64,000 bases of DNA from IMG/VR virus record IMGVR_UViG_3300021476_000423, positions 1 through 64,000 of that record; one strand, given 5' to 3'. The notes under the pieces are model-generated. The model was given only the letters and a program-made list of their open reading frames with translations, was not told the origin of the DNA and did not search any database. Of this stretch, positions 10,215 to 39,264 are shown one piece after another; the first letter of the stretch is position 1; the number at the start of each line of letters is the position of its first letter. This stretch comes from a virus. The position numbers and the translations under genes are program-made.

Positions 10215-10292
10215 TGGCGGGCCTAGTGGGATTTGAACCCACGACGACCAACTTAAGGGGTTGGCGTTCTAAACTGACTGAACTATAGGCCC
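10215..10292 (-). tRNA. tRNA-Lys(CTT), CCA encoded, atypical C33
   Basis: Reverse complement folds into a full cloverleaf: GGGCCTA TA GTTC-AGTCAGTTTA-GAAC G CCAAC-CCCTTAA-GTTGG TCGTC GTGGG-TTCAAAT-CCCAC TAGGCCC G CCA. TTTATAAAG box lies about 25 nt upstream. Confidence 0.9.
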
Positions 10293-12761: not shown

Positions 12762-13652
12762 TTGACAGACTCCGAAGTGACGGAAGAAAGCCAAGTCGCA
12801 ACCAACACTTACAAGCGAAGGCAAGCCGAGTCCTTCGCCTTTGTAGGCGGTGGGCCAGATGGATGGAGAGTGAGCACCGTTAGGAACGTCAGAACTTCGC
12901 TAAGTCCGAAGGGTCAGCAAATCACACGACCAGAGTTCGACATACCGGCCTATCGTTGGGTCACGCCTTACAGTGATATGCACCCTGAAGCAAGAGGCGG
13001 AGGCGCATATTGCGAATTGTGTGGATGGGCGGGCATTGTGGACATTTGGTATATCCAGAATGATAGCAAATGGCTCATCATGCAAGTCGGTTCGGTTTGT
13101 GTGAATACTTTCATGGGCGCAGAGTTCACAGCGAAGACGGTTCGCAAATTCAGAGAGAACAAACTCAGGATAGCCTATGACGGATGGAGAGACGGAGCCG
13201 TGGTGGAAATCAACAAACGGGGCACTGGCGCAAGTCAGTGGCTAAGTTACAGTCTCTACCAATTCAAACAGAAGATTATCAAGTCCTACCCTGAGACCAC
13301 TTCGAGCCGAGTAATCTTGAACATCTTCAAGAAGGCCAGAACCTTCAACCTTCCAATCCCTGCCGAAGTCCTACCAGACCAGACGGCAGAGCAAACCGTA
13401 GGGCCGGACTTTGGCAAGAAGGACACACCGAGACAGGGGCCGACTTACAGTCAGACCAAACAGACCAACGGCGTAAAGGTTTGGGTCGGGGCCGGACTTA
13501 GAGAGCAAGCCACACAGACACCAAGTCCGAGACCAGTCCAGCAATACCTAACCATGATTGACCGGGGCCAGATTTTCGTTAAGGTTGCCGGGGCATGGGT
13601 CAAAGCAATCAAATCAGCAACGGGTGTGTGGATGCCACAGGGAGCGATTTAG
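12762..13652 (+). CDS. Hypothetical protein with Zn-binding motif
   Basis: CELCG...WYIQN...VGSVCV in a 296-aa ORF. Confidence 0.6.
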   Translation: MTDSEVTEESQVATNTYKRRQAESFAFVGGGPDGWRVSTVRNVRTSLSPKGQQITRPEFDIPAYRWVTPYSDMHPEARGGGAYCELCGWAGIVDIWYIQNDSKWLIMQVGSVCVNTFMGAEFTAKTVRKFRENKLRIAYDGWRDGAVVEINKRGTGASQWLSYSLYQFKQKIIKSYPETTSSRVILNIFKKARTFNLPIPAEVLPDQTAEQTVGPDFGKKDTPRQGPTYSQTKQTNGVKVWVGAGLREQATQTPSPRPVQQYLTMIDRGQIFVKVAGAWVKAIKSATGVWMPQGAI

Positions 13653-14368
13653 ACTTGCTCAACTTCTGCAAACAGGACGGGCGCATTCTTCAGAGTCCTG
13701 AAGAGAGAGACAACGGACTTTGCCGCTATTGCTACCGTGGCATTGCGGCCAATACTTCAGCGTTCTTCTCAACCTTCAGAGCAACCATGAATTACACAGT
13801 CCAGTCAGTCATTCCACGCCGAGTTAGCAAAAGCAGACGACTCAAGCCTAGCATCGAACCCCATACAGACCTAGTGACTTGGGCAGATTCTTCGCCCGAT
13901 TTTCGGGGTCACTTGGCAAGCACAACCATGAAGACACGAGAGATTCACTTCAATTGGGAAGGGGTGACTAGGGGTGCAACGAAGACAGCCAAAGTTACCA
14001 AAGGCAACATCGAAGACAGTCTGTCAGACTACATTGCCACAATCCAAGTCCATGAGTTGATTCATGCAGTAGGCCAAGTCGGACACACCACACAAAGGAG
14101 TTTGGGTTACAAAGTCGCAAGTAACCGAGCCTTCGATAAGGTCATATCTCTCATGGGTCACACATGGGGCACTGCCATTAACAAAGGCGTGGCTGACTTG
14201 GACGAAGTTAACACAGACTTGCCAAACCCACACCGAACACTTGATAAAGTCCCGGCTCCTGAGAGCCTACCAATGAGCACAAACTTGACAACCGAAAAGA
14301 ACGACCCTTACCCAACCACGGCAGACGATTGGGCTAGAGTCTACGCCGCAAAGAAAGGAGCCGAGTGA
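13595..14368 (+). CDS. Putative HExxH metallopeptidase-like protein
   Basis: VHELIHAVGQVGH motif. True start is probably slightly downstream. Confidence 0.45.
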   Translation: MGQSNQISNGCVDATGSDLDLLNFCKQDGRILQSPEERDNGLCRYCYRGIAANTSAFFSTFRATMNYTVQSVIPRRVSKSRRLKPSIEPHTDLVTWADSSPDFRGHLASTTMKTREIHFNWEGVTRGATKTAKVTKGNIEDSLSDYIATIQVHELIHAVGQVGHTTQRSLGYKVASNRAFDKVISLMGHTWGTAINKGVADLDEVNTDLPNPHRTLDKVPAPESLPMSTNLTTEKNDPYPTTADDWARVYAAKKGAE

Positions 14369-15070
14369 CTTGGAGAGCATACTTAGCCGCAACTACCTTC
14401 TAGACGAGATAGCCAATGCCAAGCCGACCGTGGACTTGGACAAGAGCATAATCAATGAGGCCAACAACAGGTTCACAAAGAAGACTTGGAAGACTGACAG
14501 TGCACTTGGCGCTCTTCAACTTGAAGAGGATTTCAGGACTGCCGCCGCCGACCTACGCCGATTCGCAGACGAGTTAGTGATGGGTCAGAGCGAAGCATGG
14601 AGAGCACGAGAAGTTTGACAACCTCTGCACTTAAGATGGGTCTCAACTACACCCTTACCGAGTTGGCCGAGACTAAGGCCGAGTTGAAGAGACGATTCAA
14701 GCGAGCCTACAGTCCCGACTACAAGATGGACTTGGGCCAAGCCACCTTCGACATTATCGCCTTTGAGGATGGGATTCTAGGAGCATGACGGTCAAAGACT
14801 ACGACAGGAAGGACGTTATCAAGAAAGCGCCAGAGTCTTTGGGTTTGGTTGGCCGTGGACTTTGCGGCGAGACGTTGGCTTACGCTTACCAAGTTAGTCC
14901 AAAGACCTTTGCTTACATCACCCTCAATCAAGATGGTTCTTGGAAGGCTGAGAAGGTCTCAATAAGATGAGCAGTAAGACCAAACTTAGCCACGGTTGCG
15001 CCTACGCAGAGGGCGAGCACCAACATTACTTCAGAGGCAAAGTCGAGCACTGCCCCGACGAGATGAAAGA

Positions 15071-16222
15071 TTGAGCAACAACCAGACCACACTGCCCGAC
15101 TTCCTTCAGACTAAGGTAGTGGGTCACAGGACTAGAGCACTTCAGCCGCCTCTGCCGAGAGTCCGAAGTCCGGTCTGGAAGATTGACAAGTCCCAAGCCC
15201 TCTCAGAGAATTGGGTCGAGTTCCTACGGGCCAAGATGGGAGTCGCATTCGAGTTGGAGTATAACTACAAGTGGGAGACGACTTGCACCAAGTCATGGCA
15301 AAATGAGTTGAACCATGAGCGCAATATGATTCACGATATTCACGACGACCCCACACTTGCCAGTAACGAAGGTCAAGAGTTCGTAATTGAGGCACTGCCG
15401 CAGGTCTCAAGCGAAGAGTTTGCGGCCCGTCTTCCCATGAAAGTCTTCAGAGACCACTTTGAGACAGGGGGCCATTGTGGAATGCACACCCACGTTATAG
15501 TTCTGCCCTACGGGAAACACAAACCAGTCCCGATTCAAATCGCTAAGAACGGGTGGCAACTCTTCAGAGCCTTTTACCCCGGATGGATTCATCTGTTTGG
15601 CAATTACCCCAAGCGATTGTTGAGGTCACGATGGGCAACATGGAAAAACAACTTCATAGAGTCACCAACCAAAGAACCGAGTTGGGGTCACAAATCGTGG
15701 GCAACGACGGCGGCAGAAGATAAGAGACACAATGGCGGCATTTCGTTTGAAGACTGTAAACTCATGGAAGAATACGAAGATGACGAAGGACGAACACGAC
15801 AAAAATTCGAAGAGGAACTTAGACCTACACTTACCAAGTTCGACGCAGAGATTAGGGTCAGCGATTCGACGCATGAGTTAGACCAAATCGTTGCTTGCAG
15901 AGCACTCAGTAAGGCTCTCTTCTTGCGGTCGGCAGACTTAGCCACGGTGGGCGTTATCGACCTACCAGACGCAATGGAGAGCCAAGTCATGGAAATTGCG
16001 AGAGACGTTCAAAGCAGTATCCAAGACAGATTCTTCAAAGTCTATGACGTTGATGATGGCGTAGACGACGGACTTGAAGCAAGACAGGGCCAAGCCATGA
16101 GGTCGAATGCCGTGGCCTTTGTGCGTGAGATGCAACCCTATCTAACACCCTATGAGATGAAACAAGTTAGGTCATGCCTTATCAATCCCGTCAGACGAAG
16201 AGGGGTTGTGAAGTGGCGATAG
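15071..16222 (+). CDS. Amidoligase (COOH-NH2 ligase, glutamine-synthetase fold; Amidoligase_2-like), copy 1
   Basis: Motifs GVAFELEY, HDDPTL..GQEFV, CGMHTHV and DAEIRVSDST. TTG start at 15071 overlaps the upstream micro-ORF stop. Confidence 0.75.
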   Translation: MSNNQTTLPDFLQTKVVGHRTRALQPPLPRVRSPVWKIDKSQALSENWVEFLRAKMGVAFELEYNYKWETTCTKSWQNELNHERNMIHDIHDDPTLASNEGQEFVIEALPQVSSEEFAARLPMKVFRDHFETGGHCGMHTHVIVLPYGKHKPVPIQIAKNGWQLFRAFYPGWIHLFGNYPKRLLRSRWATWKNNFIESPTKEPSWGHKSWATTAAEDKRHNGGISFEDCKLMEEYEDDEGRTRQKFEEELRPTLTKFDAEIRVSDSTHELDQIVACRALSKALFLRSADLATVGVIDLPDAMESQVMEIARDVQSSIQDRFFKVYDVDDGVDDGLEARQGQAMRSNAVAFVREMQPYLTPYEMKQVRSCLINPVRRRGVVKWR

Positions 16223-16232
16223 TTATGGATTT

Positions 16233-16261
16233 CGGCAACAACTCAGATATACCCTACACCC
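16233..16261 (+). promoter_or_regulatory. Early-type promoter motif
   Basis: CGGCAA-CAACTCAG-ATATACCCTACACCC, with ATG 16275 at +28. Confidence 0.7.
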
Positions 16262-16274
16262 CTAGTGACTTCGT

Positions 16275-17900
16275 ATGATTCCAACTTCAACCGTCGAGTT
16301 CGCAGACGACCCCATTGTAGGGGAAGACCTAGCGAGACATGGGCCGACGAGTCAACCTATGTGCCCCTACTGCATGAATCTGGTCACTGACCATCCGAGC
16401 GAAGAGAGCGAGAACGAAGACAACTTCAATCACGGCCACAGGACTATTGGGGAATCCCAAGTCTGCCGCAGAGTCTACCAGTGCGGTTATGCTCAACCGA
16501 CTAACGGTGAGGCGGTTATGCTTTTCTACGTTTACCACGACTTGGGCAACATGAGCAATTTTGCCGTTGCCAAAGTGCGTGAGATAACCAGTGAGACGAT
16601 TGACGACTCTGACGTTATCAAGTTCGGGCGCAAGAAACTCAGGGCAGATATCAAACCGAAGTGGCGATTCAGAACCAAAGACGCAACTGAATCAGACCTT
16701 ACCGAATACTTCAGAGACAATGTAGTTGTGGGTATAGAACTTGAGTTGGACTTCAAACCGAACCGACCCATTTCAGACAGCCAACTTCTCCGACTCTTTG
16801 GGACTGAGCACACTGAATACCACCACCTTCCGGCTTGCCCCTCATGTGGGAGAGCCGAGTGTTGGAGTCACCTACCAGACAATCTCATTAGAGCCATTGA
16901 GAGAGATGCCAGCATTGAAGGATGGGAGTTCATCGTCTACGGCGGCAGACTTGCGCCAGAAGAGTTCGCAAGGCGGCTCCCGTTGAATAAGATGGCGGCA
17001 CACTTCAAGCCGACATGGAGAAACAGCATTCACTCTCATGCAATGCTAGTTCACAACATTGCCAAAGTCCCACAGGTCATTATCAAGAACGCATGGCAAC
17101 TCTTCAGATTCTATTACCCCGGATGGGTCTATCTGTTTGGCAACTTCAGCAGAGAGCAAGGCTTTCTCAGGTCACAGCCAGCGAGTTCGGATTATGTCCC
17201 CTTCAAACTCTTCAACAAGTCACCCTTCTCAACCAGATGGATTAGAGACGTTTCGTATGCAACTCACAAACAGAACGGCGGCGGAATGTATTTCGGCAAG
17301 TTCGGTGAGGCAGGGGCGGCAAGGTTGGCTGAGTTGAACAAACCAGAGTTGACCAAGTTCGACATTGAAATCAGGACTTCAGATTCAACGACTGACATGG
17401 AACAAATCGTGGGATTGAGAGGACTGACTAAGGGCATGGTAGTTAGGTCAGCACAACTCAGCAACTTCGGCCTCATTTCGGTCGAGACCGATAAGGAGAC
17501 TTGGGAGAAGGTGAAGGCCGTAACTCAGAAACTCAATGCAAGGTCGGGTCTCACCGAAGAGGATGAGGCATTCATGAAAGCGCAAGCCATTGCCTTTGTG
17601 AAGGAATTAGCACCCTTCCTCAGTGAGTATGAGAGAATGTGCCTCAAGTCACTCATCGAGAAACCAGTCAGAACAAGGTCAGAACAAGAGCAAGCCAAAG
17701 TCTTCAATGTGAAGACAAGTCCATTAGCGAAGGACATGAGGCGGCTCATTGCACTCGGAGAAGTTGAGGCCGACACTGAATCAGCATGGATTCAGAAGGT
17801 TGCAGACCTAATCGACTCGACAACGGCAGACGTTCAGGATGCAGTGAACGACCTGAAAGCCTACTTCGACAAAGAACTTCGTAGGATGGTGCAAGCCTAG
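16275..17900 (+). CDS. Amidoligase copy 2 with N-terminal Cys-rich extension
   Basis: Motifs GIELELDF, ERDASIEGWEF, SIHSHA and DIEIRTSDST. Shares KNxWQLFRxxYPGWxxLFGN with copy 1. Confidence 0.75.
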   Translation: MIPTSTVEFADDPIVGEDLARHGPTSQPMCPYCMNLVTDHPSEESENEDNFNHGHRTIGESQVCRRVYQCGYAQPTNGEAVMLFYVYHDLGNMSNFAVAKVREITSETIDDSDVIKFGRKKLRADIKPKWRFRTKDATESDLTEYFRDNVVVGIELELDFKPNRPISDSQLLRLFGTEHTEYHHLPACPSCGRAECWSHLPDNLIRAIERDASIEGWEFIVYGGRLAPEEFARRLPLNKMAAHFKPTWRNSIHSHAMLVHNIAKVPQVIIKNAWQLFRFYYPGWVYLFGNFSREQGFLRSQPASSDYVPFKLFNKSPFSTRWIRDVSYATHKQNGGGMYFGKFGEAGAARLAELNKPELTKFDIEIRTSDSTTDMEQIVGLRGLTKGMVVRSAQLSNFGLISVETDKETWEKVKAVTQKLNARSGLTEEDEAFMKAQAIAFVKELAPFLSEYERMCLKSLIEKPVRTRSEQEQAKVFNVKTSPLAKDMRRLIALGEVEADTESAWIQKVADLIDSTTADVQDAVNDLKAYFDKELRRMVQA

Positions 17901-19217
17901 ATGTGTCGCATGGCTTTGATTCTCAGCACCGACAAGCCGCTTAACACCTTCGAGTTGGCTATGAAGTCAGCATGGGCTAACCACAACGACGACGGCGTAG
18001 GCATCTACTGGCGAGACTTGTCCGGCAACCACTTGGCGAGATTCAAGGACTCTAAGGACTTGGCGAAAGTTCCCAACGACTACGACCGGATGCTGATTCA
18101 CTTTCGCAAGTCTACCAAGGGCGAAGGGACTCATCCGTTCCGTTGCATCTGCCGTCCCGACCTGCACAGCGAGCAATGGATTATGACCCACAACGGAGCA
18201 GTGGACGACTCGACAGCGAGAGCCAGCCTAGTCAAAGCGATTGAGAAGAAAGGTCTCACAGCCCACGAGTTCTCGACTAACATCGACTCCGAACCCTTCA
18301 TTCACATTTGGGGCGAGTTGGCTGAGACCGACCTACTTGAGAGAGCCAAGGTATTCACAGCACAAGTGAATGAGTTACAACTTCACGGTTGGGCCAACCT
18401 CATCTTCTACAACGTGGTCACAGATGAGTATGTTGTCTTTGTGGACACAGCGATTCGCGTTGTCCAATCCAAAAAGCGGGACATCACAGTGATTTGCTCG
18501 GACTCGGCATGGCTAGACTCTGATGCCAGCAGGAAGTTGGGTGTGACCGACGCAAACATGAACCAAGGCACTGTCATTTACGGAAAGGGTCTCAAGTTCA
18601 AGACTAAGAAGAACGTTTGGGTTGTGAAACCAAGGGGTTATGGAAACCAAACAGCACTTCCAAGTTGTGAAATCCCGAAGGGAGCCGTCAACAATGGGGC
18701 CAAAGGATTTTTCAGTGGAACAGAATCCTACTACAGCGATAATAAGTGGATTGAAGACCACTACTACAAGGAGAGCAAGATTCCCGATGTTGACTTGGGC
18801 GAATACTTCTGCGTAGTCTGCCAACAGTCAAAAGAGTTCCACAGGTTCTATACCAAGAAGGAAATGGAATTGGCCGAAAATGCAAGGATGAAGGATATCG
18901 AGACCGTGAAACCCGAAGTATGGGAGCCAAAGTCACTTGAGGGTCACATACTCGCAAAGCCTACCAACGTAGTCAAAGAGGGTAAGAACGTTGCCAAGTT
19001 TGGGAGTGGATTCGTTATGCTCAGAGTCACAAATTGCTTCTGCCGCCCACAGGATGATGCAAACCGACCCTCTAATGGCATTTGCCAACTTCACTATGTG
19101 AAAGGATTCCGACAATTCTTCCACGACCAAGACGGTTATTGGTATCTTGTCAGACGCACAGACTACACTACAGGAGACGGAACCGTGGCCTACGACTCAG
19201 GGTCGAGTGGTGATTAA
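17901..19217 (+). CDS. Class II (Ntn) glutamine amidotransferase with C-terminal extension
   Basis: N-terminal MCR, then HNDDGVG, IHFRKST, THPF, HNG and DSE. Confidence 0.85.
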   Translation: MCRMALILSTDKPLNTFELAMKSAWANHNDDGVGIYWRDLSGNHLARFKDSKDLAKVPNDYDRMLIHFRKSTKGEGTHPFRCICRPDLHSEQWIMTHNGAVDDSTARASLVKAIEKKGLTAHEFSTNIDSEPFIHIWGELAETDLLERAKVFTAQVNELQLHGWANLIFYNVVTDEYVVFVDTAIRVVQSKKRDITVICSDSAWLDSDASRKLGVTDANMNQGTVIYGKGLKFKTKKNVWVVKPRGYGNQTALPSCEIPKGAVNNGAKGFFSGTESYYSDNKWIEDHYYKESKIPDVDLGEYFCVVCQQSKEFHRFYTKKEMELAENARMKDIETVKPEVWEPKSLEGHILAKPTNVVKEGKNVAKFGSGFVMLRVTNCFCRPQDDANRPSNGICQLHYVKGFRQFFHDQDGYWYLVRRTDYTTGDGTVAYDSGSSGD

Positions 19218-19220
19218 ACC

Positions 19221-19874
19221 ATGACAGACATTCGAGTTCACAAATCCGGCGAAGACCTACTTCGAGATGGATTCATCGGAGTCAACAGCAAACCCAACGG
19301 CAAGTTCGAAATCAGAGGCGCAGTGATTAGGTTCGAGACTTCACCTGCCGCAAGTGACTTCGAAGACCCCAACTACAAGGTGAGCGTGTGGGTTCCAAAC
19401 TCAACCTACATGGCCGACAAGAAGAAGGGGGGCAAGCAATTCGAGATAAACACCAAGGGCAACGGCAACTACAGCAACTACATCACATTCAAAGAGTTCA
19501 TGAAAGCAGTTTACGAAGCCGTGACCGGAGCGCCGCCCAAGACAGGACGGGAATCAGTGAGCAAGGAGATATTCGGATTCAGCGTGAGTCTCAAGGAGAG
19601 CATTGAGAACAACAAGGAGACAATCAAGGAGTCCATCGACCCACTGACAGAGGTTATCAAACTCCCCAAGCAAGAAGTCAAAGTCGAGAACAAGGTCACA
19701 GTCACCTACAAAGGTGTGACAAGCAACGGCGTAAAGGTAACAGCCAAGGGCCATGACGGGTCTTGCCAATGTGACGAATGCAGGGCGGTTCAAGCGGCTC
19801 TCAATGAGTTAATCGAAGGCCGCAATAAGGGCACATCACAGATAAGCAACGACGAATACATGGGGTATGCCTAA
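19221..19874 (+). CDS. Hypothetical protein
   Basis: 217-aa ORF in the operon, with HDGSCQCDEC near the C-terminus. Confidence 0.6.
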   Translation: MTDIRVHKSGEDLLRDGFIGVNSKPNGKFEIRGAVIRFETSPAASDFEDPNYKVSVWVPNSTYMADKKKGGKQFEINTKGNGNYSNYITFKEFMKAVYEAVTGAPPKTGRESVSKEIFGFSVSLKESIENNKETIKESIDPLTEVIKLPKQEVKVENKVTVTYKGVTSNGVKVTAKGHDGSCQCDECRAVQAALNELIEGRNKGTSQISNDEYMGYA

Positions 19875-19877
19875 GAC

Positions 19878-20921
19878 ATGAAATTCGACTTTCCTATCGA
19901 GTGTGTCGTCAAAGAACTAGAAGGATTGCATGAAGTCATTCTCAGTGAACAAACCACTCCTCTCAAACGAAACGAGTTGATTGCCCAAGTCCAAGACACT
20001 CTTCAGAGACTCAACGGTTCGATTTTGTGCAATTGCCATGACCATCGTTGCATTTACTATCGAAATCAGATGTGCTTATGCCGTGCAAATCTTAAATGTC
20101 GAGAGATAGGATTCACTTTCAATCTGCCGAGAAGTAATTTCAGTGATGAGCAGTTGGCGGTTTTCAAAGACGCAGTAACCACAGAAGAGGCGAGTCGCAA
20201 GCCTAACGAACCCTTCATTGTGTGGAAGGTTAGAGTAACAGCAAAGGTTGACGAAACAGCCTATTACGTCTGGAATTACAAAGACGTAGGGACAACTCGA
20301 TATGGTTATCCATCATGGCGAGATACAACAGAGTCAGCCGGAGAGACAAACTTCAAGGCTTACATGGCGCAACTTCGTCACGACCCTGTTATGGCCAAAT
20401 CTGTAGGATGCTTTGCGTGTTCGGTAGTCTTTCAAACTCAGGAAAATCTTGAGGCTCATGTGGACAGACTAAGGTTTTTGCACGATACAGAGCACACGAC
20501 AACGGCAAAAATGGTTACACCAGACAGCGTAACTTCAGTAAGACCTTCGCCGCCAACCTACCACTACCCAATTCCTCCGCCAACGGTAAGACCTAGACCC
20601 TTCGCAGGTGGTTTTTCAGGGCCAACATCGATAGACCGATTCCCGCGAGATGCACATGACACTCCAACCACTTACAGAACGACGTTTGCAGATTACATGA
20701 GAGACAACATAATTGCTACTTATCCAAGTGCGTTAGGGTGCTATGAGTGCGGCAAAATCTTCCCACAATCAGAGATGGTAAATGACCACTTGATGCGAGC
20801 GCACGGTTACGAATCGCCAATCTCTGACGACCTTGTAGTTTACCCAAGTCCAGAATTAGACTGGATGCAAGATGAGGCGGCAGAAGACTACAATCCTGAG
20901 AGGGACGGGCCTAACCGATGA
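19878..20921 (+). CDS. C2H2 zinc-finger protein
   Basis: CFAC..F......AH and CYECGKIF......HLMRAH, plus an N-terminal CNCH cluster. Confidence 0.65.
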   Translation: MKFDFPIECVVKELEGLHEVILSEQTTPLKRNELIAQVQDTLQRLNGSILCNCHDHRCIYYRNQMCLCRANLKCREIGFTFNLPRSNFSDEQLAVFKDAVTTEEASRKPNEPFIVWKVRVTAKVDETAYYVWNYKDVGTTRYGYPSWRDTTESAGETNFKAYMAQLRHDPVMAKSVGCFACSVVFQTQENLEAHVDRLRFLHDTEHTTTAKMVTPDSVTSVRPSPPTYHYPIPPPTVRPRPFAGGFSGPTSIDRFPRDAHDTPTTYRTTFADYMRDNIIATYPSALGCYECGKIFPQSEMVNDHLMRAHGYESPISDDLVVYPSPELDWMQDEAAEDYNPERDGPNR

Positions 20922-21257
20922 GACGAACACCACAACAGATAGCCATAGCCACACGGCTAAGTCTTTATGGCAAATTGAGCAAACGACTCGACATTGAATG
21001 CCGAGTTATTGAGGCAGACGCACTTCTCAAATCGACATTGGACTCTGGCTCAGTCACTCAAAAAACCAAAGTCTATGCGACACTTAACAACAAACTCGGA
21101 ATTGCGTTGGGATGCAATTGTCACAATATGGTTTGTGTATTCCGCAACCGAAGCGGAAGTTGTGAGTGCATTGGGAATTCGTCGGCAATTCATTGCACCG
21201 GACTTTACGCTTTCGGCCAAAAAGGTGATAACCTAGTCCTTCCACAGAGGGTTCATC

Positions 21258-22109
21258 TTGAGTAACAACATTCAATCCGTGGTCTTCGTAGATGTCGGCG
21301 TAAGCAAGACGGAAACGCCACAACGTCTAGCGGCCAGACTAGAACCAATACTCAAGGCCAATGGCATCGAGTTCTTCAACAACCCTACTGAAAGACCAAG
21401 AGGCGATTACCTAGTCATTAGATGGGGTGCGACCAGAATGCCACACTTGGACAGTGGAGCCAAGGGCATTCTAAATCCTGCCGAAAGGATTGCTCTCAAT
21501 GCCAACGACAAACGGGCCGCACACAGAGCAATGTTAGAGGCTGGCGTGAGCACTCCGCAATTCTGGACAACGTGGGAAGAAGCCAAAGTTAAGGCAACCG
21601 AGTTGGGGTGCGACTTGCTCCGACGCAGACTCCACCACACAAGAGGGAAGGACATCTTGAGACTCAAGCCAAGCGACGAATTGCCCCGGCGCAGAAGGTC
21701 GGGATACTACGTCCAGTTGTTAGACAAGGATGCCGAGTTCAGACTCCATGTGTTTGGAGACAAGTGCATTGGCATGGCGCAGAAGGTCAACAACTCAGGA
21801 CAAGGAGACTCACTGATTTGGAATGACGACAACGGATGGGACTTTGTGTATATCCCACAGGATGAGAGAGAGCAGATTCCCCACTACAAGAAAATGGTGG
21901 CCGAGTCAGCGAAGGCTCTCAAGGCCATTGGCTTGAGTTTTGGGGCGGTGGACTTGGTTATGGTCAAAGGTCAGCCCTACATACTCGAAGTCAACACAGC
22001 CCCGGCCCTTCACCAGACCAAACGTTACTCCAAAGCAATGTTGGCATGGGTTGTTAGGGAATTCGGCAAACATTTAGATATACCCCCTACCCTAGAGTCA
22101 GAATCATGA
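21258..22109 (+). CDS. ATP-grasp ligase (RimK/YheCD-like, phage type)
   Basis: Motifs IRWG, DKRAAH, YYVQ...EFRLHV, FGAVDLV and YILEVNTAP. Confidence 0.85.
   Translation: MSNNIQSVVFVDVGVSKTETPQRLAARLEPILKANGIEFFNNPTERPRGDYLVIRWGATRMPHLDSGAKGILNPAERIALNANDKRAAHRAMLEAGVSTPQFWTTWEEAKVKATELGCDLLRRRLHHTRGKDILRLKPSDELPRRRRSGYYVQLLDKDAEFRLHVFGDKCIGMAQKVNNSGQGDSLIWNDDNGWDFVYIPQDEREQIPHYKKMVAESAKALKAIGLSFGAVDLVMVKGQPYILEVNTAPALHQTKRYSKAMLAWVVREFGKHLDIPPTLESES
22064..22092 (+). promoter_or_regulatory. Early-type promoter motif inside the 3' end of the ATP-grasp gene
   Basis: CGGCAA-ACATTTAG-ATATACCCCCTACCC, with ATG 22106 at +28. Confidence 0.65.
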
Positions 22110-23088
22110 GCACAAACACTTTCGCTTGCTTGGAGCATGGGCTTATTACCCATGACGCTCAAGAATGAGCACGACACCTAGCGAGACAGCACAAGGGTTG
22201 TCTCCTAGAGGAATCAGCATAGACCTTCCAAAGCCTTACACCTACAAAGCCACATTCAAAGCACTAGAGCCGGAGCCAGAACCGATAGCCCCTGCCATAG
22301 ACATTGAAGAGATAGCGAAAATCCTAAACCCTCAATCCATTAAAGGAGAAGTGGAATTGAAAGGAGAAAGAGTTGCCAGAACTTAAGCAAGTAGACGATT
22401 GCTCTTATCAGGAATGTGGTGATACAGCCGTTCACTACCATAAAGTCTTATCAGACGGCACAGAGTCATGTCCTGATGAGATGAGAGATTGAGACTCATA
22501 CTCGAACCTCACAAATACAGTCCTGAGACTTGTTCAGGATGCTATGCGATGGAGCAATACAAGCGATATTTCAATCGCAATGCGGAGACTCACATAGCAT
22601 GACCAAACGACCAAAGAAACAACCGAGCATCGACAACGCCGGAGACCAGAGAGTGATAGAGGCTCAGAGACATATCAATGAAGCCGATACACGCCCGCTA
22701 GGTGGTCTTCCCAAGTCATCACCCTTCCCACTGAAGGAAGAGTCTTTCCTATTCTCAATCATAGTCACAGTGCGAAATGACAAAGTGATTGAAGCAACGA
22801 AAGCGCATTCGCTTATGCTCGATTCTCTTAATGACATGAGAAAGAAAGGGGAGATAGTGCGTTATCAGACCAGTGTGACTCAAGTGATTAACAGAGGGCA
22901 AGACGTAAGTTGACTTGGAATCGAGCCATCTATACTTGGCAACCAAGAAGGCTTTGGGCTTCACTTGCTTGCAGACTCACAAGCCACAAGTGGCTTGAAG
23001 GGTCTTGTCCTACAATTGGGATGCAAGAATACATTGAATCGGCTAGGGGGCGAGTGTGTCAGCGATGCAAAAGAGCAGAGATTTGGAT

Positions 23089-23493
23089 ATGATTCGCCGC
23101 TACAAACCCGCAGACTATGAGAGGGTCGTGGACTTCATCCGAAAGTTTGGAGACCACCATATACTTGGACTACCAGAGCGCAAGTCAGATGTGAGAGTAG
23201 GCTTTCTCAAAGAGTTTGATGGAGAGATTGTCGGGTATTCGGCTATGAGTCTCGACCAAAGGTATTCAATCACAGTTGTTCATCCTGATTGGCGGGGCAG
23301 TGGTCTCGGAAAGAGACTTCTCCATCGAAAGATTGATTGGGCCAAAGAAAAGGGTCTCAAGTATCTTGAGACAAAGGTGGGTGTGTCGAACTACGCCAGC
23401 ATCGGAATGCTCAACAAAATCGGTTATGAAGTCGTTGGACTAGGCACTGCTACCACCGGAAAGCCTACCCTAACTATGAGATTGACTCTCTGA
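23089..23493 (+). CDS. GNAT acetyltransferase
   Basis: Acetyl-CoA motif VVHPDWRGSGLGKRLL and N..SIGML.KIGY. Probable start MIRRYK. Confidence 0.85.
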   Translation: MIRRYKPADYERVVDFIRKFGDHHILGLPERKSDVRVGFLKEFDGEIVGYSAMSLDQRYSITVVHPDWRGSGLGKRLLHRKIDWAKEKGLKYLETKVGVSNYASIGMLNKIGYEVVGLGTATTGKPTLTMRLTL

Positions 23494-31153: not shown

Positions 31154-31612
31154 ATGAGAGAAGTAGTCGGGGATATCTGGAATTTCTACGATAACGGTAA
31201 GCAGTGGATAGTTATCCCTACCAATGGTGATTGGAATAGAAAGGGTGAGGCTGTCATGGGAAGGGGTTTGGCTTTGGATGCGGCCATTCGATATCCTGAC
31301 ATACCACGGCGTTTGGCACTGGTGCTCATGAGTAATCACGGCAATCATCTGACTCAGTTTGACGATAGAAAGATGTTCACTTTTCCTGTCAAACATCACT
31401 GGCGAGAAGATGCTAACCTAGACCTGATTTACAGAAGCACAAACGAGTTGAGAGCCAGAATTGAATATCAAAATTTGAGTCCTGTTTACCTACCGAGAGT
31501 GGGATGCGGAAACGGTAGGTTGGCGTGGAAGGATGTGAAACCAATACTAGCCGTGTTGGACGATAGATTTACGGTTGTGTTTCCGGCTGAGTCTGTTGCC
31601 GACCCAAGATAG
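31154..31612 (+). CDS. Macro domain protein (ADP-ribose processing, DarG/Poa1p-like)
   Basis: Motifs GDIW, IPTNG...VMGRGLA, FPVKHHW and LPRVGCGNGRLAW. Confidence 0.85.
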   Translation: MREVVGDIWNFYDNGKQWIVIPTNGDWNRKGEAVMGRGLALDAAIRYPDIPRRLALVLMSNHGNHLTQFDDRKMFTFPVKHHWREDANLDLIYRSTNELRARIEYQNLSPVYLPRVGCGNGRLAWKDVKPILAVLDDRFTVVFPAESVADPR

Positions 31613-33533
31613 GTTTCCGTGTAGCGGTCGCTTCAGCCTCTTCGACCTGTTGACGAGAAGCCTCAACCTCTTTCTTTAACTCTTCAACCTCTTCTTCTAG
31701 GGTCGAGAGCATTCCTTTGGCCTCTTCATTGTTGAAGAAGCCCTCTACGGCGGCGGCTCTCCAATCACTCTGCTCGGTCTTTTCTCCCCCTTCTGCACCA
31801 AATCCCTTACCTTCCTCATCTGGAAACTCCTTGTCGCTTGGCGGTCTAGAGGCCATATCACGGTCTGGACTACCAAAGGTGGGCTGTCCCTCTCTGGTCA
31901 TACCCGGCGCACCCTGACCCGGCATACCACCACCTGCACCCGTCTGTCCTAGCGGTGGCTCCTGCGGCCCCAACTCTTCCTGTAGTTTGTCCTCAGAAAG
32001 CGGCTCAAAGCCGAGAGCCTTTCTCACTTCGTTCTTAGTAAGGATTCTAGAGGCATAGAGTGGAAGGTAGGTCTTGGCTTTGTCTTCGAGAGTGTCTTCC
32101 TTCTGAGGCTTCCAGATGAACTTGGGCACATCGAACTCTTTGATAATCTCGTCGGCCAAATCGCCGTAGAGCGACTGCATAATCATAGTCATAAGAGTGT
32201 GTTCGAGTTGGGCATTAAGAGACTGGCGGTTGCTGTTGGTGAAGGTGAAGTATCCCTTCTCAACGGTCTGAGCCGTTGCTCTGTTCAATCCGGCAGGGTC
32301 GGTAAAGAACTTCGGGACAGTCAAAGCATAGGTTCTCATATTGTGAAGCCACTGCAACCAGAACGAAGTGGTCTGCATCCTGTCGATTGGCGGGTCGATA
32401 GGGTCTACCTGCACCGGAGTCGTTGCCCTAATCACAAGCGACTGGCCGGGTTGAGCATTGTTAAAGAACCTCTTGACCTGCTGATACTGTGAAGCGGTCA
32501 CATCCGGTGTGGGCAATCCAACAGTGTTAGCCCCACCTACTCTGACCAAGAACATCGGCTTCAGAAAGACATTCATGATGGCTCCCATCGTTTGCTCATA
32601 GTTCTTGATGAGTTCCTGATGGAAGAGGATGGGTCTCAACATGGAAACACCGTAGACAGATTCGTAAGTCCATGATGTAGGCATATAGCGTAGGTGAATC
32701 ATCTCGTCGGCTAGGAAGGTGACAAGCGGAAAGACATAGTATTGGACATACCCTAGTATGGTTCCGTAGGCATCCCTTCTGACCCGCATATACATCGGGT
32801 CGAGTGGCTTGAATCGTGTAATCTCCCCATATTTGTTCTCTATCTTGTGGCCGGGATAGAGTTTGTCGTGGCGGGCGGCAACTTCCATACGGTCAGTCCA
32901 CCAATACGACTGACCATTCTTTGAGGTAGCATTGTAAGAGATACGGAGTGCTTCCAAATCGTGTTCTTCTGGTGAGAGGCAATACCAAGTCCTGACAACC
33001 TCACAATAGGCATTGCCAAAGACGAACATATCCTTCACAAGTATCTTGAGCAGATTGAGGAAGTCATGGCGGTCTAGGAATGCTTTGACATCCTTGGTAA
33101 CGGTTTCGAGTGGATAGTCGAGTTCATATCCTTGCGAGATGGTCATCTGCGTGTGGAAGTCAATCGTGGCCCGAATGAACGGCTCCTGAACGTAGTATTG
33201 CTTATACTTCTGATAGTCTTCGGTAGGGACGGCTCCCCAAATCTTCTCCCAAACAGCGACGTAAGGATAGACCGTAAAACCCATACCCAAGCCGGGTAGT
33301 TCTTTGGTGGCATATTCTTCCCACGCAAAGTCTCTCCACCATGCTTCACCTCTGTCTATCTGACCAATCTGTTGCTCGGTTGGCGGCTTGTAAGAGGCTT
33401 GGAGACGGGCTAGAGTCTGGTCATCAAATCCTCTCGGAGAACCTGACTGTTGGTCGATGGTGCGATTCTGACCTGTGATTCTCGCTTGTCGAAGTGCTCC
33501 AACGAGAATATTATCCTTATCTTCACTACTCAT
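31569..33533 (-). CDS. Portal protein
   Basis: Portal-like blocks Y..EPFIRATID, FVFGNAYCEVVR, KPLDPMYMRVRRD..G, EMIHLRY...YGVS and ILTKNEVRKALG. Long acidic C-terminal tail. Confidence 0.85.
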   Translation of the reverse strand: MSSEDKDNILVGALRQARITGQNRTIDQQSGSPRGFDDQTLARLQASYKPPTEQQIGQIDRGEAWWRDFAWEEYATKELPGLGMGFTVYPYVAVWEKIWGAVPTEDYQKYKQYYVQEPFIRATIDFHTQMTISQGYELDYPLETVTKDVKAFLDRHDFLNLLKILVKDMFVFGNAYCEVVRTWYCLSPEEHDLEALRISYNATSKNGQSYWWTDRMEVAARHDKLYPGHKIENKYGEITRFKPLDPMYMRVRRDAYGTILGYVQYYVFPLVTFLADEMIHLRYMPTSWTYESVYGVSMLRPILFHQELIKNYEQTMGAIMNVFLKPMFLVRVGGANTVGLPTPDVTASQYQQVKRFFNNAQPGQSLVIRATTPVQVDPIDPPIDRMQTTSFWLQWLHNMRTYALTVPKFFTDPAGLNRATAQTVEKGYFTFTNSNRQSLNAQLEHTLMTMIMQSLYGDLADEIIKEFDVPKFIWKPQKEDTLEDKAKTYLPLYASRILTKNEVRKALGFEPLSEDKLQEELGPQEPPLGQTGAGGGMPGQGAPGMTREGQPTFGSPDRDMASRPPSDKEFPDEEGKGFGAEGGEKTEQSDWRAAAVEGFFNNEEAKGMLSTLEEEVEELKKEVEASRQQVEEAEATATRKPILGRQQTQPETQP

Positions 33534-33590: not shown

Positions 33591-35519
33591 ATGAGCGATA
33601 AATCGGTGAAGAAAACACTCGACTGGCCTAACTGGAAAGAGCATCAGACTCTACCCGTTCAAGGTCATTACACTGAAGAAGTGCAAGACCAAAGCCAAAA
33701 CCCTAGCCAACAACTCAATCCTACTGAGAATCAGAATATGACCCCTCTCGGACAAAACCAATTTATGCCTACCGCCACTATTGGATATGGGGGAAAGGGC
33801 GAAGGTAGTGTCGTATGCGGAAGGCACAATAAATCGTGGTTTTCTCACACTCAAGCAGAACTTGAAGAGGATATGGCAGAGGGCAAGGTTAGTGCTGAAG
33901 AGGGCACCGAAATCACGCCCGAAGTAGAGGCCGACCTTTCCATCGATGTTGATTGCCCCTCATGCGGTAAGCAGTCCTTCTTAGGGCCGCTAGGCTCTGA
34001 GAATGTCTTCAAGGCTGGCAAGTGGGTGTGCCCCTTCTGCAACTACATTGAGGTTATCGAATCCGAAGAAGACTTGGAAGACTTGCTTTTTAATGTCTTT
34101 GATGATGAAGAGGATTTTACATTGGACGAACAAGATTCGTTAGAATGTCCGATATGTGAGCAAACCTTCAAAGAGGATGAGTTAGACCATCACCTATCCT
34201 TCGCCCACAGTTTGGGGAAGAGTGAAGTCAGCATTCGAAATGTTGACCCTGCTTGGTGCGAAAAGCACAACAAACCAATAGACCTACACAATGGGTTTGA
34301 GATTGATGAAGATACTCGTGAATCAATGGGTAAACCAGAAGAAGTCCAAGGGATGACATCGAAAGATGTGGATACCTTTGTCGGAGGCCGATGCAAACAC
34401 GGAAAGCATATCAATGAACCCTGTGAAGGATGTGACGAAGCGAGACAAGCCGAACTTGAGTATGATTACGAAACTGACGAAGAGGGAGTGGCCGCTATGA
34501 AGGAAGCCCCTCTGACAGACCCAAGAGAAAGAGACAAAGAAAAGGGATTGGATGTTGAAAAGGAGCCGGGTGCAGACCTTTCGCCAGAGGCTCAGAAGAT
34601 TGCAGGAGTTGACCCTGAGAGTAGGGCGCAAAGACAGCAAGAGAAACCCAAGTTGGAAGTGGATATTGACCAGAAGATTACCATCCTTGGAAAGACAGGT
34701 TCGGGTAAGACCAACCTCATCAAAGTTCTCATGTCGGACATCCTACCAGACTACCATTTTGTAGTGTTGGATGCTATTGGCAATCTAACCGAATATGAAG
34801 GTCAGCCTAACGTAGACTATCATCAGACCAATCCTACCAATGATGCTGAAGTTGACCAGATAATCTACTCGGCGCTTGAGAAAGGAGACTGTATGGTTGT
34901 GATAGATGAGGTTGACCGTTACAACTCCAAGAAGGGCACAATGCTCAATGAGTTGGTGAACGTGGGCCGCAACTACGGTGTTGGAGGCGTTTTCGCCGCC
35001 CGTAGAACAGCAAGTATTGATAAGGATGTTTTGGCTAATTCATCCTACATCTTCACTTTCCAGCACATTCTACCACAGGATTTGGACGTTCTCATTGATT
35101 GGTTCGCACAACCAGAAGAGACCTTCCGAGACCTACAAGAGTTTGAGGCCATCCTATTCAAAGACGGAGACCAGATTTGGGTAGGTCTAGTGCCAGAAAA
35201 GCCTACGACCAAGCCAACTAAGAAACCCACTCTTCCCAAGAAACCGAAGCAACCACAACAAAAGGGTAAGGGGCCAGAGCAGAAGGGACAATCACCAGAG
35301 GGTGGGAGCAAACCACCTACCGACGAAGGTGCAGAGAAAGAGCCAGTGGAAAAGAAGCCACCCGAACTAACTCCGGCTGACGAAGGTGAGGTTCAAGCCG
35401 CAGAGAAATCTGAGGCGAGATATGCCGCCGAAGCCCCATTTATGTGTGAAATGGATGGTCAACGGTTTAAGTATGAGAGTGATTTCGAAGACCATATGGT
35501 GAGTCAACACGCCTATTAG
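33591..35519 (+). CDS. FtsK/HerA-superfamily (A32/B204-like) ATPase with long acidic Zn-finger N-terminus
   Basis: Walker A GKTGSGKT, Walker B VVIDE, arginine finger GRNYG, and ARR..ID. Multiple CxxC and CxxH clusters. Confidence 0.75.
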   Translation: MSDKSVKKTLDWPNWKEHQTLPVQGHYTEEVQDQSQNPSQQLNPTENQNMTPLGQNQFMPTATIGYGGKGEGSVVCGRHNKSWFSHTQAELEEDMAEGKVSAEEGTEITPEVEADLSIDVDCPSCGKQSFLGPLGSENVFKAGKWVCPFCNYIEVIESEEDLEDLLFNVFDDEEDFTLDEQDSLECPICEQTFKEDELDHHLSFAHSLGKSEVSIRNVDPAWCEKHNKPIDLHNGFEIDEDTRESMGKPEEVQGMTSKDVDTFVGGRCKHGKHINEPCEGCDEARQAELEYDYETDEEGVAAMKEAPLTDPRERDKEKGLDVEKEPGADLSPEAQKIAGVDPESRAQRQQEKPKLEVDIDQKITILGKTGSGKTNLIKVLMSDILPDYHFVVLDAIGNLTEYEGQPNVDYHQTNPTNDAEVDQIIYSALEKGDCMVVIDEVDRYNSKKGTMLNELVNVGRNYGVGGVFAARRTASIDKDVLANSSYIFTFQHILPQDLDVLIDWFAQPEETFRDLQEFEAILFKDGDQIWVGLVPEKPTTKPTKKPTLPKKPKQPQQKGKGPEQKGQSPEGGSKPPTDEGAEKEPVEKKPPELTPADEGEVQAAEKSEARYAAEAPFMCEMDGQRFKYESDFEDHMVSQHAY

Positions 35520-36947: not shown

Positions 36948-38234
36948 CTACACCGCATTTGGATGCTCCCTTATTTTGGCGATGTCTGTATTGAGATAGA
37001 TTTCGAAGATATTTTTTGGTGGCGAAAAGTGATGTTCTCTACCCTCTGTGGCTATGTGTTTGGCTATGATGGGCATGGCCCTTGCTTTATCTTGCCAAAC
37101 TTTTGTTTCAAAGTAAAGACGTTGAGCAGGTGTGACCATTCTTTCGTCTTTGATTGCGGTTTCTTTAAAGATGGAACTCATAAGTTCATCCCAAGAATGC
37201 TGAAGTGCTCTCAGAATGCGGTCTTCGGGCATAGGAGGAAAGGTGGCTTTCTCTAGTATGTTCCGTGGGATTGGTGGCAAGTCGGGTAAGTCTATCTTCT
37301 CTTTGAAGCCGATGAGTCTACCGTTCTTGTAGACCTTCCCCACCACACCCTCTCTCTTGTGCCGCTTGGCCCACGTTTTCCATTCCTCAATCTTAGGTGA
37401 CAGGTCTTCCATCTTCCAAGGTGTGAAAGTCTCAGTGGCTTCTACAAGAGACAACTTGTAGTGGTAGGCCATCTGATAGACTAGAGTGTAGGGCAGATAA
37501 GACTTGGCATCTATATCGTAGATGTCAAAGAGATACCAATGAGCATACTTGTGGGCTGGCTCAATGCGAGTCGGCCCCTTACCCTTGTTGACCAACTCAC
37601 CATAGAGAACGAGATTCTTGCCAAAATTCATCCATTCTGACCGAAGCAATTCTAAGGCATTTGGATACTCTGGTGTATTTGAGACTCGATAAATCATCTT
37701 GGGGTCAGCATTGACCATATTGTGACTAGACACATGAATCATCTTCTTTTCTGGCTCAACTTTCACATTCTCTTCAAGCCACAATGAGACGTTTTCGCCA
37801 TCTCGCTTGGGAAAGACGTAGACTATCTCGCCTAGTAACTCTCGTCCTTCCTCTTCAAGCCGCTTGACACACTCTAACTCTATGTAGCGTTGCCACGGAT
37901 ACTTTTGCCCAAGAGCATCACGCATCTCGACAAATCGCATGGTCTCTTCGTCTACCACTTCTTTGACAATAGTAGGCAGTTTTAGTAGTTCTTCGTCAAA
38001 AGATTGGTAGATAACCTTGTAGAGAGAATCACTTCGGTAGGAGATGTCAGGGTCTTCAACTTTTTCTACCTTTTCCAATATTCTTGCGATTCGATGAGTC
38101 GGCACAATCTCTGCAATCTTTTCAAATTCCTTCAGAGGCAAATCAATAAGTTCTTTGTAATCTCTATATTGGATTCTATAGTTACCTTCTGTAAATCTTG
38201 CTTTAGCATAGGCTTCCTCTAATTTTCCTTTCAA
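36948..38234 (-). CDS. ATP-dependent RNA ligase with N-terminal MJ1316/DUF504-like domain
   Basis: Nucleotidyltransferase motifs KRDGEN, YGEL, LFDI, EGVV and KEK. N-terminal IQYRD...VPTHRIARI. Confidence 0.75.
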   Translation of the reverse strand: MKGKLEEAYAKARFTEGNYRIQYRDYKELIDLPLKEFEKIAEIVPTHRIARILEKVEKVEDPDISYRSDSLYKVIYQSFDEELLKLPTIVKEVVDEETMRFVEMRDALGQKYPWQRYIELECVKRLEEEGRELLGEIVYVFPKRDGENVSLWLEENVKVEPEKKMIHVSSHNMVNADPKMIYRVSNTPEYPNALELLRSEWMNFGKNLVLYGELVNKGKGPTRIEPAHKYAHWYLFDIYDIDAKSYLPYTLVYQMAYHYKLSLVEATETFTPWKMEDLSPKIEEWKTWAKRHKREGVVGKVYKNGRLIGFKEKIDLPDLPPIPRNILEKATFPPMPEDRILRALQHSWDELMSSIFKETAIKDERMVTPAQRLYFETKVWQDKARAMPIIAKHIATEGREHHFSPPKNIFEIYLNTDIAKIREHPNAV

Positions 38235-38514
38235 GGACTACATCCTGTCGCAGATTGCAGGATAATTGCATCGCCAAAGTTCTGCTCGTAGACACTATAG
38301 CAACCACCTATTTGAACGACTGGAAGAGAATAAGGTGAGTCTACGACATACCCATGCTTGAAGTAGAGTTTGCTTCCGTCTGCGTTTACCCCTATTAGCG
38401 TATCTTTGAACTTAAAGGTGGTTTGATTGACATAAGAGAAGGAGATACCAAGTCCCAATAATATCAGGACTATAATTCCAACAATTACGATTTTATCCGC
38501 ATTTTCTCTGATTT

Positions 38515-39264
38515 TCATGGGTAATCCACTTGCTCCACTAGGTCGCGGTCATGGTAGATAAGGATTTTGTTCCCTAACAGAGCATAATGTTGGTCTTGGG
38601 GTGACGAATCAACCCTAACAAACCTAGTGGCTCCATGCACTTCTCCCACCTTGAAGGGGCCAGACAAATGGCCAGAGAACCAGATGCGGGGTCGGACTAT
38701 TCCCACCACATCGGTTAGCACTTGAAACTCTTCAGTGGGATGGAATCTCGTTTCATCGGACATAGGAATACTGGCATGAGTGCAAAGCACATCTATCGGC
38801 CCTTTTTGGGCTAGAGTGTTAGCGGCGGCAAGGTATTCTTCTGGTAGAAGTCTAGGAACCCAAGTGATGTCAGTAGTATGCCCTTTGTAGGTCTCTTTGT
38901 AATTCATTCTACGTCTTCTTTCTTTCACATCACCCATGATGCCATTGATGAAACCGAACTTCCAACTCTGTATCATCCGTGTCTCGCCATCTCTAGCCCA
39001 TACTTTACTCCTATCCAGATTCCGAAGCCCCTTCATCATCTGCACATTGTCATGGTTGCCGAAGATGGCGTGAACTTTAACCACTTGAAGTAGGTTCTCC
39101 CATTCCTCTTCATCCCAAGCATACCCCGTATCGCCGCAAAGCACCAAGTCACTTGGTCTATGAAAGTCAACCATCTGAAGCATCCACTTGAGAGCATCCC
39201 CTTCCCACACTCGACCATGAAAATCCTTCTCGTAATGGATGTCAGACATGACCATGATGCTCAT
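38515..39264 (-). CDS. Calcineurin-like metallophosphoesterase
   Basis: Motifs SDIH, CGD, GNHD, THA and SGH. Confidence 0.9.
   Translation of the reverse strand: MSIMVMSDIHYEKDFHGRVWEGDALKWMLQMVDFHRPSDLVLCGDTGYAWDEEEWENLLQVVKVHAIFGNHDNVQMMKGLRNLDRSKVWARDGETRMIQSWKFGFINGIMGDVKERRRRMNYKETYKGHTTDITWVPRLLPEEYLAAANTLAQKGPIDVLCTHASIPMSDETRFHPTEEFQVLTDVVGIVRPRIWFSGHLSGPFKVGEVHGATRFVRVDSSPQDQHYALLGNKILIYHDRDLVEQVDYP

Follow-up and report, generated by a model that had tools for sequence, protein, structure and literature searches.

A probable divergent amidoligase cassette with two paralogous ligases in a tailed virus that very probably infects archaea

The IMG/VR virus record IMGVR_UViG_3300021476_000423 (106,907 bases) belongs to a tailed virus, and its first 64,000 nucleotides (64 kb, the window) were analysed for a cluster of predicted peptide-ligase genes on the + strand. 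The cluster encodes two paralogous proteins predicted to be ATP-dependent carboxylate-amine ligases of the glutamine synthetase (GS) fold, a short one (amidS) and a long one (amidL), together with a class-II glutamine amidotransferase (GAT) and a RimK-family ATP-grasp ligase (Table 1). Most likely, this cluster is a divergent and functional member of the amidoligase cassette of the phiEco32/LUZ24 type, residing in an archaeal virus. New with respect to the known cassette are the second ligase, which appears to be duplicated within the lineage, the Zn-finger partner proteins and the lack of a detectable GGCT gene. Hundreds of phage genomes carry the phiEco32-type cassette. It was reportedly predicted computationally by Iyer, Abhiman, Burroughs and Aravind in 2009 (Mol Biosyst 5:1636), and no product has become known for it in the years that followed.

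The fold of amidS was modelled by AF2 with a pLDDT of 75 and a pTM of 0.82. When the model was searched with VIA against 48,161 PDB chains, the top 18 chains were all YbdK, GCL, Dop, PafA or GS (Z 9.4–15), followed by one lengsin chain (Z 6.9) and then by a chain at 3.9. A Foldseek search against the PDB agrees with a GS/GCL-type fold, and the best matches in the viral structure library BFVD were phage proteins named 'Amidoligase enzyme'. The structure was modelled for the short copy alone; amidL is placed by the family profile described below and by its paralogy with amidS (38% identity over ~290 residues, E 5e-37). The first-pass annotation had described the two genes as tandem paralogous ligases and had expected a GS-type fold, and both points are supported. 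Besides the fold, the two ligases share the E-x-E, E, H, E-x-R layout with YbdK/GCS2 and PafA/Dop, although the identity to these proteins is only 7–14% and no sequence-level match to any PDB chain was found; searching the PDB sequences with the ligase, GAT and ATP-grasp profiles also returned nothing. The features of a GS-like carboxylate-amine ligase are thus found here, namely a GS-type fold (in the amidS model), acidic and His metal ligands and the E-x-R motif. We take these residues to match the metal ligands of GCL, from what is known of E. coli GshA rather than from a residue-by-residue superposition.

Standard profile annotation overlooks these ligases completely; neither of them has a match in Pfam, PHROGs or NCBIfam. 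The ligase family was described by its own profile, which gathered 80 cluster representatives among 1.8 billion proteins. The A2 profile, built from 70 of the 80 representatives, gives 352 bits for amidL and 213 bits for amidS. Against phiEco32, A2 recognizes the amidoligase gp84 (24.6 bits, E 2e-7), which was the sole match among 355 open reading frames (ORFs), and the best of 1775 shuffles reached 7.2 bits. The alignment with gp84 takes in the GxExE, DGSxxxGxE and CxxHxH motifs. The Pfam Amidoligase_2 domain is itself carried by one of the 70 representatives (1.3e-7). Only the wider A2 profile bridges to the phage protein: neither the close-family profiles A1 and A3, run on the ORFs of phiEco32, nor hhalign comparisons with the individual gp84 and gp86 sequences reached significance, and the family profiles do not match gp86. 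Scans of viral and genome contigs with the ligase profiles found nothing, and a distant member of the ligase family had no tblastn match in 50,697 phage records (a phage and archaeal-virus collection). The modelled fold of amidS, the profile bridging to gp84 and the conserved catalytic residues together indicate that both ligases are remote relatives of the phage amidoligases.

All short and long copies in the related viruses examined retain the same twelve residues (E-x-E, D, G-x-E, H-x-H, N, R, E-x-R, D). Because the full catalytic set is retained in each, both ligases look active, as judged from their sequences. An altered metal-binding motif had been ascribed to the second copy, amidL, and this claim is not supported, since all 12 residues are kept in both copies; the SIHSH of amidL lies within the spread seen among the orthologs of amidS (GMHTH in the window) and represents normal family variation. 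The extra Cys-rich segments noted in the same copy are real. An N-terminal CPYC...H.H...CRR.Y.C stretch and a CPxCGxxxCWxH insert are conserved in the long copies of six relatives, and amidL orthologs exist in all relatives with 41–67% identity. The amidS ORF spans 14996-16222, and the likely start is a TTG codon at 15071, which gives a protein of 383 amino acids (aa) (P0001) and agrees with the N-termini of the orthologs. In the tree, the short copies form one clade (100/100) that derives from the long type. The ligase duplication therefore predates the viral clade and both copies have been retained since, and the tree identifies the second ligase as the product of an in-lineage duplication. 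Since the two-ligase layout has been rebuilt here by duplication, two separate ligation steps may be functionally required; a heterodimer or a two-step pathway is possible for the pair.

The GAT is directly adjacent to the long ligase as first described, its Met-Cys start lying 1 nt past the amidL stop codon. The window protein itself stays below the Pfam cut-offs (GATase_4 1.5e-4, 21.2 bits, cut-off 23; GATase_6 5.9e-4, 20.3 bits, cut-off 27). Its orthologs in three related viruses (43–51% identity) reach 27.1–32.5 bits, which is over the Pfam cut-off and includes PF13522, and precomputed PF13522 or PF13230 assignments are present on 12 of 24 GAT homologs. The N-terminal Cys, R66, N95-G96 and D126-S127-E128 are invariant, and the MCRMAL start is kept wherever a start was called. 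The C-terminal half is a Cys/His array, in which the number of Zn-type modules varies among homologs. When the GAT and the portal protein were compared by tblastn with the same 50,697 phage records, no match was found.

The ATP-grasp ligase gives a direct sequence link to the phage cassettes. It matches phrog_2599 (5.9e-33) and phiEco32 gp80 (1.3e-13), and tblastn finds it in 240 phage records, which belong to phiEco32-like, LUZ24-like, phiM6-like and related groups. In NCBIfam its matches to MptN (3.5e-8) and rimK_fam (4e-7) are both below the cut-off, and it scores 29.7 bits against TIGR00768, for which the curated cut-off is 143, so that the likeness holds at the ATP-grasp/RimK-like level only. 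Unlike the RimK/LysX/CofF/MptN alpha-L-glutamate ligases, it has no S6, LysW or cofactor-pathway context, and its subfamily is found in viruses. The proposed ATP-grasp identity is confirmed by the phage matches. Orthologs with 57–59% identity are present in the related loci L019–L023. In L006, the closest metagenomic relative, the slot is filled by a different RimK-like gene (L006:4363-5286; Pfam RimK 1.2e-10, rimK_fam 1.9e-24, LysX 3.3e-16). BLAST sees no similarity between this gene and the window ATP-grasp, which suggests a non-orthologous replacement.

The genes on the + strand at ~12.3–22.1 kb are densely packed, and all of the genes named in the first-pass annotation (HExxH protein, two ligases, GAT, ATP-grasp, GNAT) were found on this strand at 13.6–23.5 kb. 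From the long ligase through the ATP-grasp gene, the gaps or overlaps are 0–8 nt and the genes are translationally coupled. The core, consisting of the short ligase, long ligase, GAT, a protein named p217, the ATP-grasp ligase and two Cys-rich proteins (p115 and zf347), recurs in five IMG/VR records of 38–106 kb. Two of these, L021 and L022, are near-identical, so that the records count as four distinct viruses. The same gene set also occurs on peat-metagenome contigs and on a 4.2-kb contig binned in a Thaumarchaeota metagenome-assembled genome (MAG). In the relatives, the short ligase is followed by small ORF(s), the long ligase, the GAT and p217, and then by the ATP-grasp gene, p115 and zf347 in varying order. 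The translational coupling and the synteny in distant relatives indicate that the cluster is not a chance arrangement.

The order of ligase, ligase, GAT and ATP-grasp is also that of phiEco32, where gp86 (COOH-NH2 ligase), gp85, gp84 (amidoligase), gp83 (GAT), gp80 (ATP-grasp) and gp77 (GGCT) follow each other, and the likeness to this neighbourhood that had been pointed out earlier is well founded. The LUZ24-like phage UFV-P2 (ORF21-29) has the same gene order as phiEco32 (PMC3890496). In the Sinorhizobium phage phiM6 (gp70-79), the same gene set is found in another order and is joined by a GGCT and a C26 gamma-glutamyl hydrolase; these additions point to gamma-glutamyl chemistry. The window cluster and the phiEco32-type cassette (gp88-gp77) share a core of two GS-fold ligases, a class-II GAT and a RimK-like ATP-grasp ligase in one operon of a tailed virus. 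The ATP-grasp proteins are directly homologous, and the ligases are tied to gp84 through profile and fold. The two differ in several ways: the host here is very probably archaeal, and Pfam fails to recognize the ligases because of their divergence; in place of a PF14395 protein like gp86, the second ligase is a paralog that arose from the first within the lineage; extra fixed partners are present, namely p217, the two 7-Cys/C2H2 proteins and the HExxH protein encoded upstream; and Zn-type modules are found on the GAT and on amidL. A further archaeal case is the tailed Poseidoniales virus Vyasavirus brisbanense, which has an amidoligase and a GATase among its auxiliary metabolic genes (PMC11706807). 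This pair, likened to ours by description only, was found by standard annotation in a marine euryarchaeal virus, and a second ligase, an ATP-grasp ligase and partner proteins are not described for it (PMC11706807).

An archaeal host had been proposed from the start, and the genome points to an archaeal rather than a bacterial one. A PriX primase subunit (54860-55153, − strand, 53.7 bits) is encoded beside PolB and a RadA-like gene, and among 14 control genomes the PriX family was positive only in Sulfolobus. LonB_AAA-LID, TFIIB zinc ribbon, ERCC4 and MCM families are also present in the viral genome, together with a weak match to TackOD1, and the related contig mentioned above was binned in a Thaumarchaeota MAG. 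From PriX, the other archaeal genes and this contig, the host is very probably a TACK archaeon, and the ammonia-oxidising Nitrososphaerota (Thaumarchaeota) are the most likely group. A similarity of the tRNA region to the Thaumarchaeota MAG was uninformative. With an archaeal host, peptidoglycan is an unlikely target, in line with the earlier suggestion that the substrate must be something else. Because the cassette is intact and under selection in viruses of peptidoglycan-free archaea, the cell-wall hypothesis is argued against more generally, and a target common to bacteria and archaea is favoured.

As for the mechanism, GS, GCL, PuuA and PafA act on a glutamate-type gamma-carboxylate, and YbdK/GCL and PafA/Dop are ATP-dependent activators of the glutamate gamma-carboxylate. 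Each GS-type ligase of the cassette would likewise phosphorylate a carboxylate at the expense of ATP, a gamma-carboxylate of the glutamate type being most likely, and then join it to an amine. The GAT would hydrolyse glutamine and pass the ammonia to the adjacent long ligase to give a carboxamide, and the RimK-like enzyme would attach alpha-linked glutamate-type residues. The net product would be a short Glu/Gln-type peptide or amide on an acceptor, for which a viral or host protein or peptide is judged most likely. The HExxH protein, as a putative zincin, may provide a trimming or removing activity, taking the place that GGCT or the C26 hydrolase has in phage cassettes. The preference for a protein or peptide as acceptor comes from the Zn-type recognition modules and the fixed partner proteins, and p217, the two 7-Cys/zinc-finger proteins, the HExxH protein and a Glu-ending small protein of the relatives are concrete candidate substrates. 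As the specific chemistry, a Glu-type modification of proteins or peptides is quite possible and is put forward tentatively.

Several observations weigh against this interpretation of the cluster. The first-pass annotation had named the Amidoligase_2 profile as a check, and PF12224 gave no match to either ligase or to the six-frame genome at E<=10, and COOH-NH2_lig (PF14395) likewise found nothing in the six-frame genome at E<=10. Since the Pfam HMMs are silent, membership of the amidoligase family rests on the fold and on the transitive profile. GGCT (PF06094) was not found in the genome at E<=10, and C26 was not searched for separately. GS-fold enzymes include hydrolases such as Dop, and one ligase copy could be a deamidase instead of a ligase. 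The channelling of ammonia from the GAT to the long ligase is inferred from their adjacency only. Nothing in the window identifies an acceptor, and p217 gave no usable fold. The literature search found no experimental study and no activity, substrate or product for any such cassette.

A modified protein or peptide is not the only product that can be considered. The enzymes could make a free small molecule, either a gamma-glutamyl amide or a short Glu/Gln peptide, or rework the tail of a host amine or cofactor, by which nitrogen metabolism would be redirected or a signalling or inhibitory metabolite produced during infection. The GS-fold relatives (GS, GCL, PuuA-type, YbdK) mainly use free glutamate, the best NCBIfam neighbours of the ATP-grasp ligase are MptN and RimK-family cofactor/peptide ligases, and the RimK relatives CofF and MptN act on F420 and methanopterin tails. 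The phage versions also include GGCT or C26 gamma-glutamyl hydrolases, enzymes that typically go with small gamma-glutamyl compounds. In published work, the function of the amidoligase/GATase pair is described as unknown, with cell-wall modification or secondary metabolites as two repeated guesses, and the pair is treated as auxiliary metabolic genes (PMC10580990, PMC11706807), a classification that fits this alternative. However, three non-enzymatic partners are kept in the module, and both the GAT and amidL have Zn-type modules, all of which is more typical of macromolecule recognition, and no transporter or other metabolic gene is linked. A small-molecule product is regarded as rather unlikely. 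The module could also serve hypermodification of nucleobases in the viral DNA, for example by placing an amino acid or amide on a modified pyrimidine to evade host nucleases. On viral metagenomic contigs, amidoligase/amidotransferase genes are found together with genes of thymidine hypermodification (PMC8989533), and the C2H2 zinc-finger proteins of the module could bind DNA. Against this, the Pfam scans, which covered most ORFs of at least 100 aa and in one case had 25 of 28 families listed, found no dUMP hydroxymethylase, thymidylate synthase, 5-HMUDK-type kinase, aGPT-Pplase or TET/JBP, and the module lies 26 kb from the replication genes on the opposite strand, which makes DNA modification very unlikely.

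Protein tagging of the PafA/Dop type would be a special case of protein modification, in which a small protein is joined through its terminal glutamate to lysines of targets, and the GAT and ATP-grasp ligase prepare or extend the tag. In the Pup system, a ligase/deamidase pair works with a small disordered tag that has Gly-Gly-Glu/Gln at its end. Dop (Z 13.2) and PafA (Z 12.5) are among the best structural matches of amidS, a protein of 84–100 aa with an acidic tail ending in Glu is encoded between the ligase genes in four relatives, and the virus has LonB-like and papain-like proteases. On the other side, YbdK and GCL match amidS at least equally well, no significant homolog of the small acidic protein was seen in the window virus (E 0.97), and no Pup and no proteasome or Mpa-like partner is linked to the module. 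A split into ligase and deamidase cannot be read from the sequence because both copies keep identical catalytic residues. Pupylation proper is accordingly held to be improbable. More broadly, the cassette may represent a viral protein-tagging or carrier system resembling pupylation or LysW/LysX, with the small Glu-ending protein or the acidic G-Y-x tail of p217 as substrate, whose carboxylate would be extended, amidated and conjugated by the amidotransferase together with the ATP-grasp ligase and both GS-type ligases. This broader proposal is drawn by analogy and is unlikely as well, if a little less so; if true, bacterial and archaeal viruses would have in common a ubiquitin-like conjugation machine of their own, encoded by the phage cassette.

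Table 1. Genes of the cluster, its neighbours and other features of the window and relatives
Feature	Position	Strand	Description
p296	12762..13652	+	function unassigned; 3' end overlaps the HExxH gene
HExxH protein	13595..14368	+	candidate zincin metallopeptidase with N-terminal CxxC...CxxC segment
three small coupled ORFs (82, 63, 61 aa)	14370..14970	+	from the ORF list
35-aa Cys/His microprotein	14967..15074	+	ends CPDEMKD; stop overlaps the ligase start at 15071 by 4 nt
short ligase amidS (383 aa)	15071..16222	+	predicted GS/GCL-fold ATP-dependent carboxylate-amine ligase
long ligase amidL (541 aa)	16275..17900	+	same predicted fold family, with N-terminal Zn-type segment and CxxC..C..H insert
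class-II (Ntn) GAT	17901..19217	+	Cys first after Met; fused C-terminal Cys/His-rich domain
p217	19221..19874	+	follows the GAT in the window and in five relatives
zf347	19878..20921	+	N-terminal 7-Cys domain and two C2H2-type zinc fingers
p115	20918..21265	+	small; shares its 7-Cys domain with the N-terminus of zf347
RimK-family ATP-grasp ligase	21258..22109	+	phage-cassette subfamily
p73	22165..22386	+	small ORF, from the ORF list
39-aa Cys/His microprotein	22373..22492	+	ends CPDEMRD; paralog of 14967-15074
p127	22530..22913	+	no Pfam or PHROG match
GNAT acetyltransferase	23056..23493	+	Pfam Acetyltransf_1 2.6e-13; generic
portal gene	31569-33533	−	within the window
terminase-like ATPase	33591-35519	+	within the window
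PolB	52407-54560	−	within the window; RadA-like gene also there
small acidic-tail protein (relatives)	L019:8001-8303; L020:8122-8409; L022:1626-1919 (= L021:112-405); L023:8139-8393		between short and long ligase genes

The HExxH protein had been noted from its motif and was found as described. VHELIH-x6-H is kept in the orthologs of L004, L020 and L023, which lie upstream of the module. The protein has no Pfam match, and the Atlas search gave zincin neighbours only at lead level (0.88–0.91) with a poor Atlas model (pLDDT 0.38). Orthologs of p217 are found in L006, L007, L019, L020, L021 and L022. The window protein and the orthologs of L006, L019, L020 and L021 share a conserved, beta-rich N-terminal domain of ~110 aa, a low-complexity linker, an acidic stretch and a C-terminal G-Y-[AYW]. 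AF2 modelling of p217 from six sequences reached a pLDDT of only 38, and the Atlas search was empty. A single-stranded DNA-binding protein was considered for p217, and this identity is not claimed, as the likeness is in layout alone, without fold or profile support.

zf347 matches Pfam zf-C2H2 at 4.3e-5, which is below the cut-off, and similar matches are seen in its orthologs, which are present in every relative covering that region. The 7-Cys pattern common to p115 and the N-terminus of zf347 was seen in an alignment of four p115 and four zf347 N-termini, and p115 orthologs occur in L006 and L019–L023.

Two kinds of small proteins accompany the ligases. In the window, two paralogous Cys/His microproteins bracket the enzyme genes, and the sole ortholog seen is L006:7183-7371, which ends in CPDAMRK. 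These CPDEM[KR]D microproteins were considered as a universal substrate of the cassette and rejected, because their occurrence is limited to this virus and L006 and their final residue varies. In four more distant relatives, an ORF of 84–100 aa lies between the short and the long ligase genes. Its product has a basic N-terminus, a core of PLK..NEG..F....AVS.NR.IE and an acidic tail whose last residue is always Glu (..VME, ..FME, ..WNE, ..WSE), and by analogy it is a possible Pup- or LysW-like tag or carrier. A profile of this protein found no significant homolog in the window virus. p127 was tried as a homolog and rejected, the profile score of 7.9 bits (E 0.97) being not significant.

The GNAT gene exists as first annotated, but its membership in the cluster is not firm. 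Its NCBIfam matches are generic GNAT families only (RimI-like 5.9e-8). L021/L022, which is one distinct relative, has an ortholog with 66% identity, placed five ORFs downstream of the module; none was found in the flanks of L019 or L020, and the L023 contig stops ~1 kb past the module. The linkage of the GNAT gene to the module is thus loose.

Upstream of the HExxH gene, the C-terminal half of p296 shows 55% identity to the ORF that precedes the L004 ortholog of the HExxH gene, and p296 has no match in Pfam and PHROG searches. The three small ORFs that follow the HExxH gene have no Pfam match; the 63-aa ORF shares a short motif, YxLTE[IL]AETK, with the small ORF at the same position in L004, as seen by eye only. 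For p73, neither a Pfam match nor an ortholog among the relatives was seen. A tRNA-Lys(CTT) gene was called by ARAGORN at 10215-10292 (− strand), just upstream of the + strand gene array.

The capsid, tail-tube and terminase gpA families are encoded outside the window in the same genome. The record is classed as 'provirus', and no host-like genes were seen in it. Two relatives' records, G002 and G005 (105.7 and 105.3 kb), are 100% complete with direct terminal repeats. From the complete relatives and the lack of host-like genes, the viruses of this clade are probably free lytic or non-integrating tailed viruses.

Some other genes of the virus were also recorded. In the window, an RNA ligase (Pfam 2.1e-10) adjoins a calcineurin-like phosphoesterase (1e-10) at 36948-39264 (− strand), which may form an RNA-repair pair. 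Outside the window, a LonB-like protease of 791 aa is encoded at genome positions 70822-73197 (− strand; LonB_AAA-LID 32 bits, with Lon_C and AAA also found), and a papain-family C1 peptidase (2.2e-13) at 94672-95526 (− strand). An ORF at genome positions 90828-91496 (− strand; L027:10628-11296), also outside the window, matches the C-terminal part of ribosomal protein S2 with a Pfam score of 38 bits, above the cut-off, and has viral genes on its flanks.

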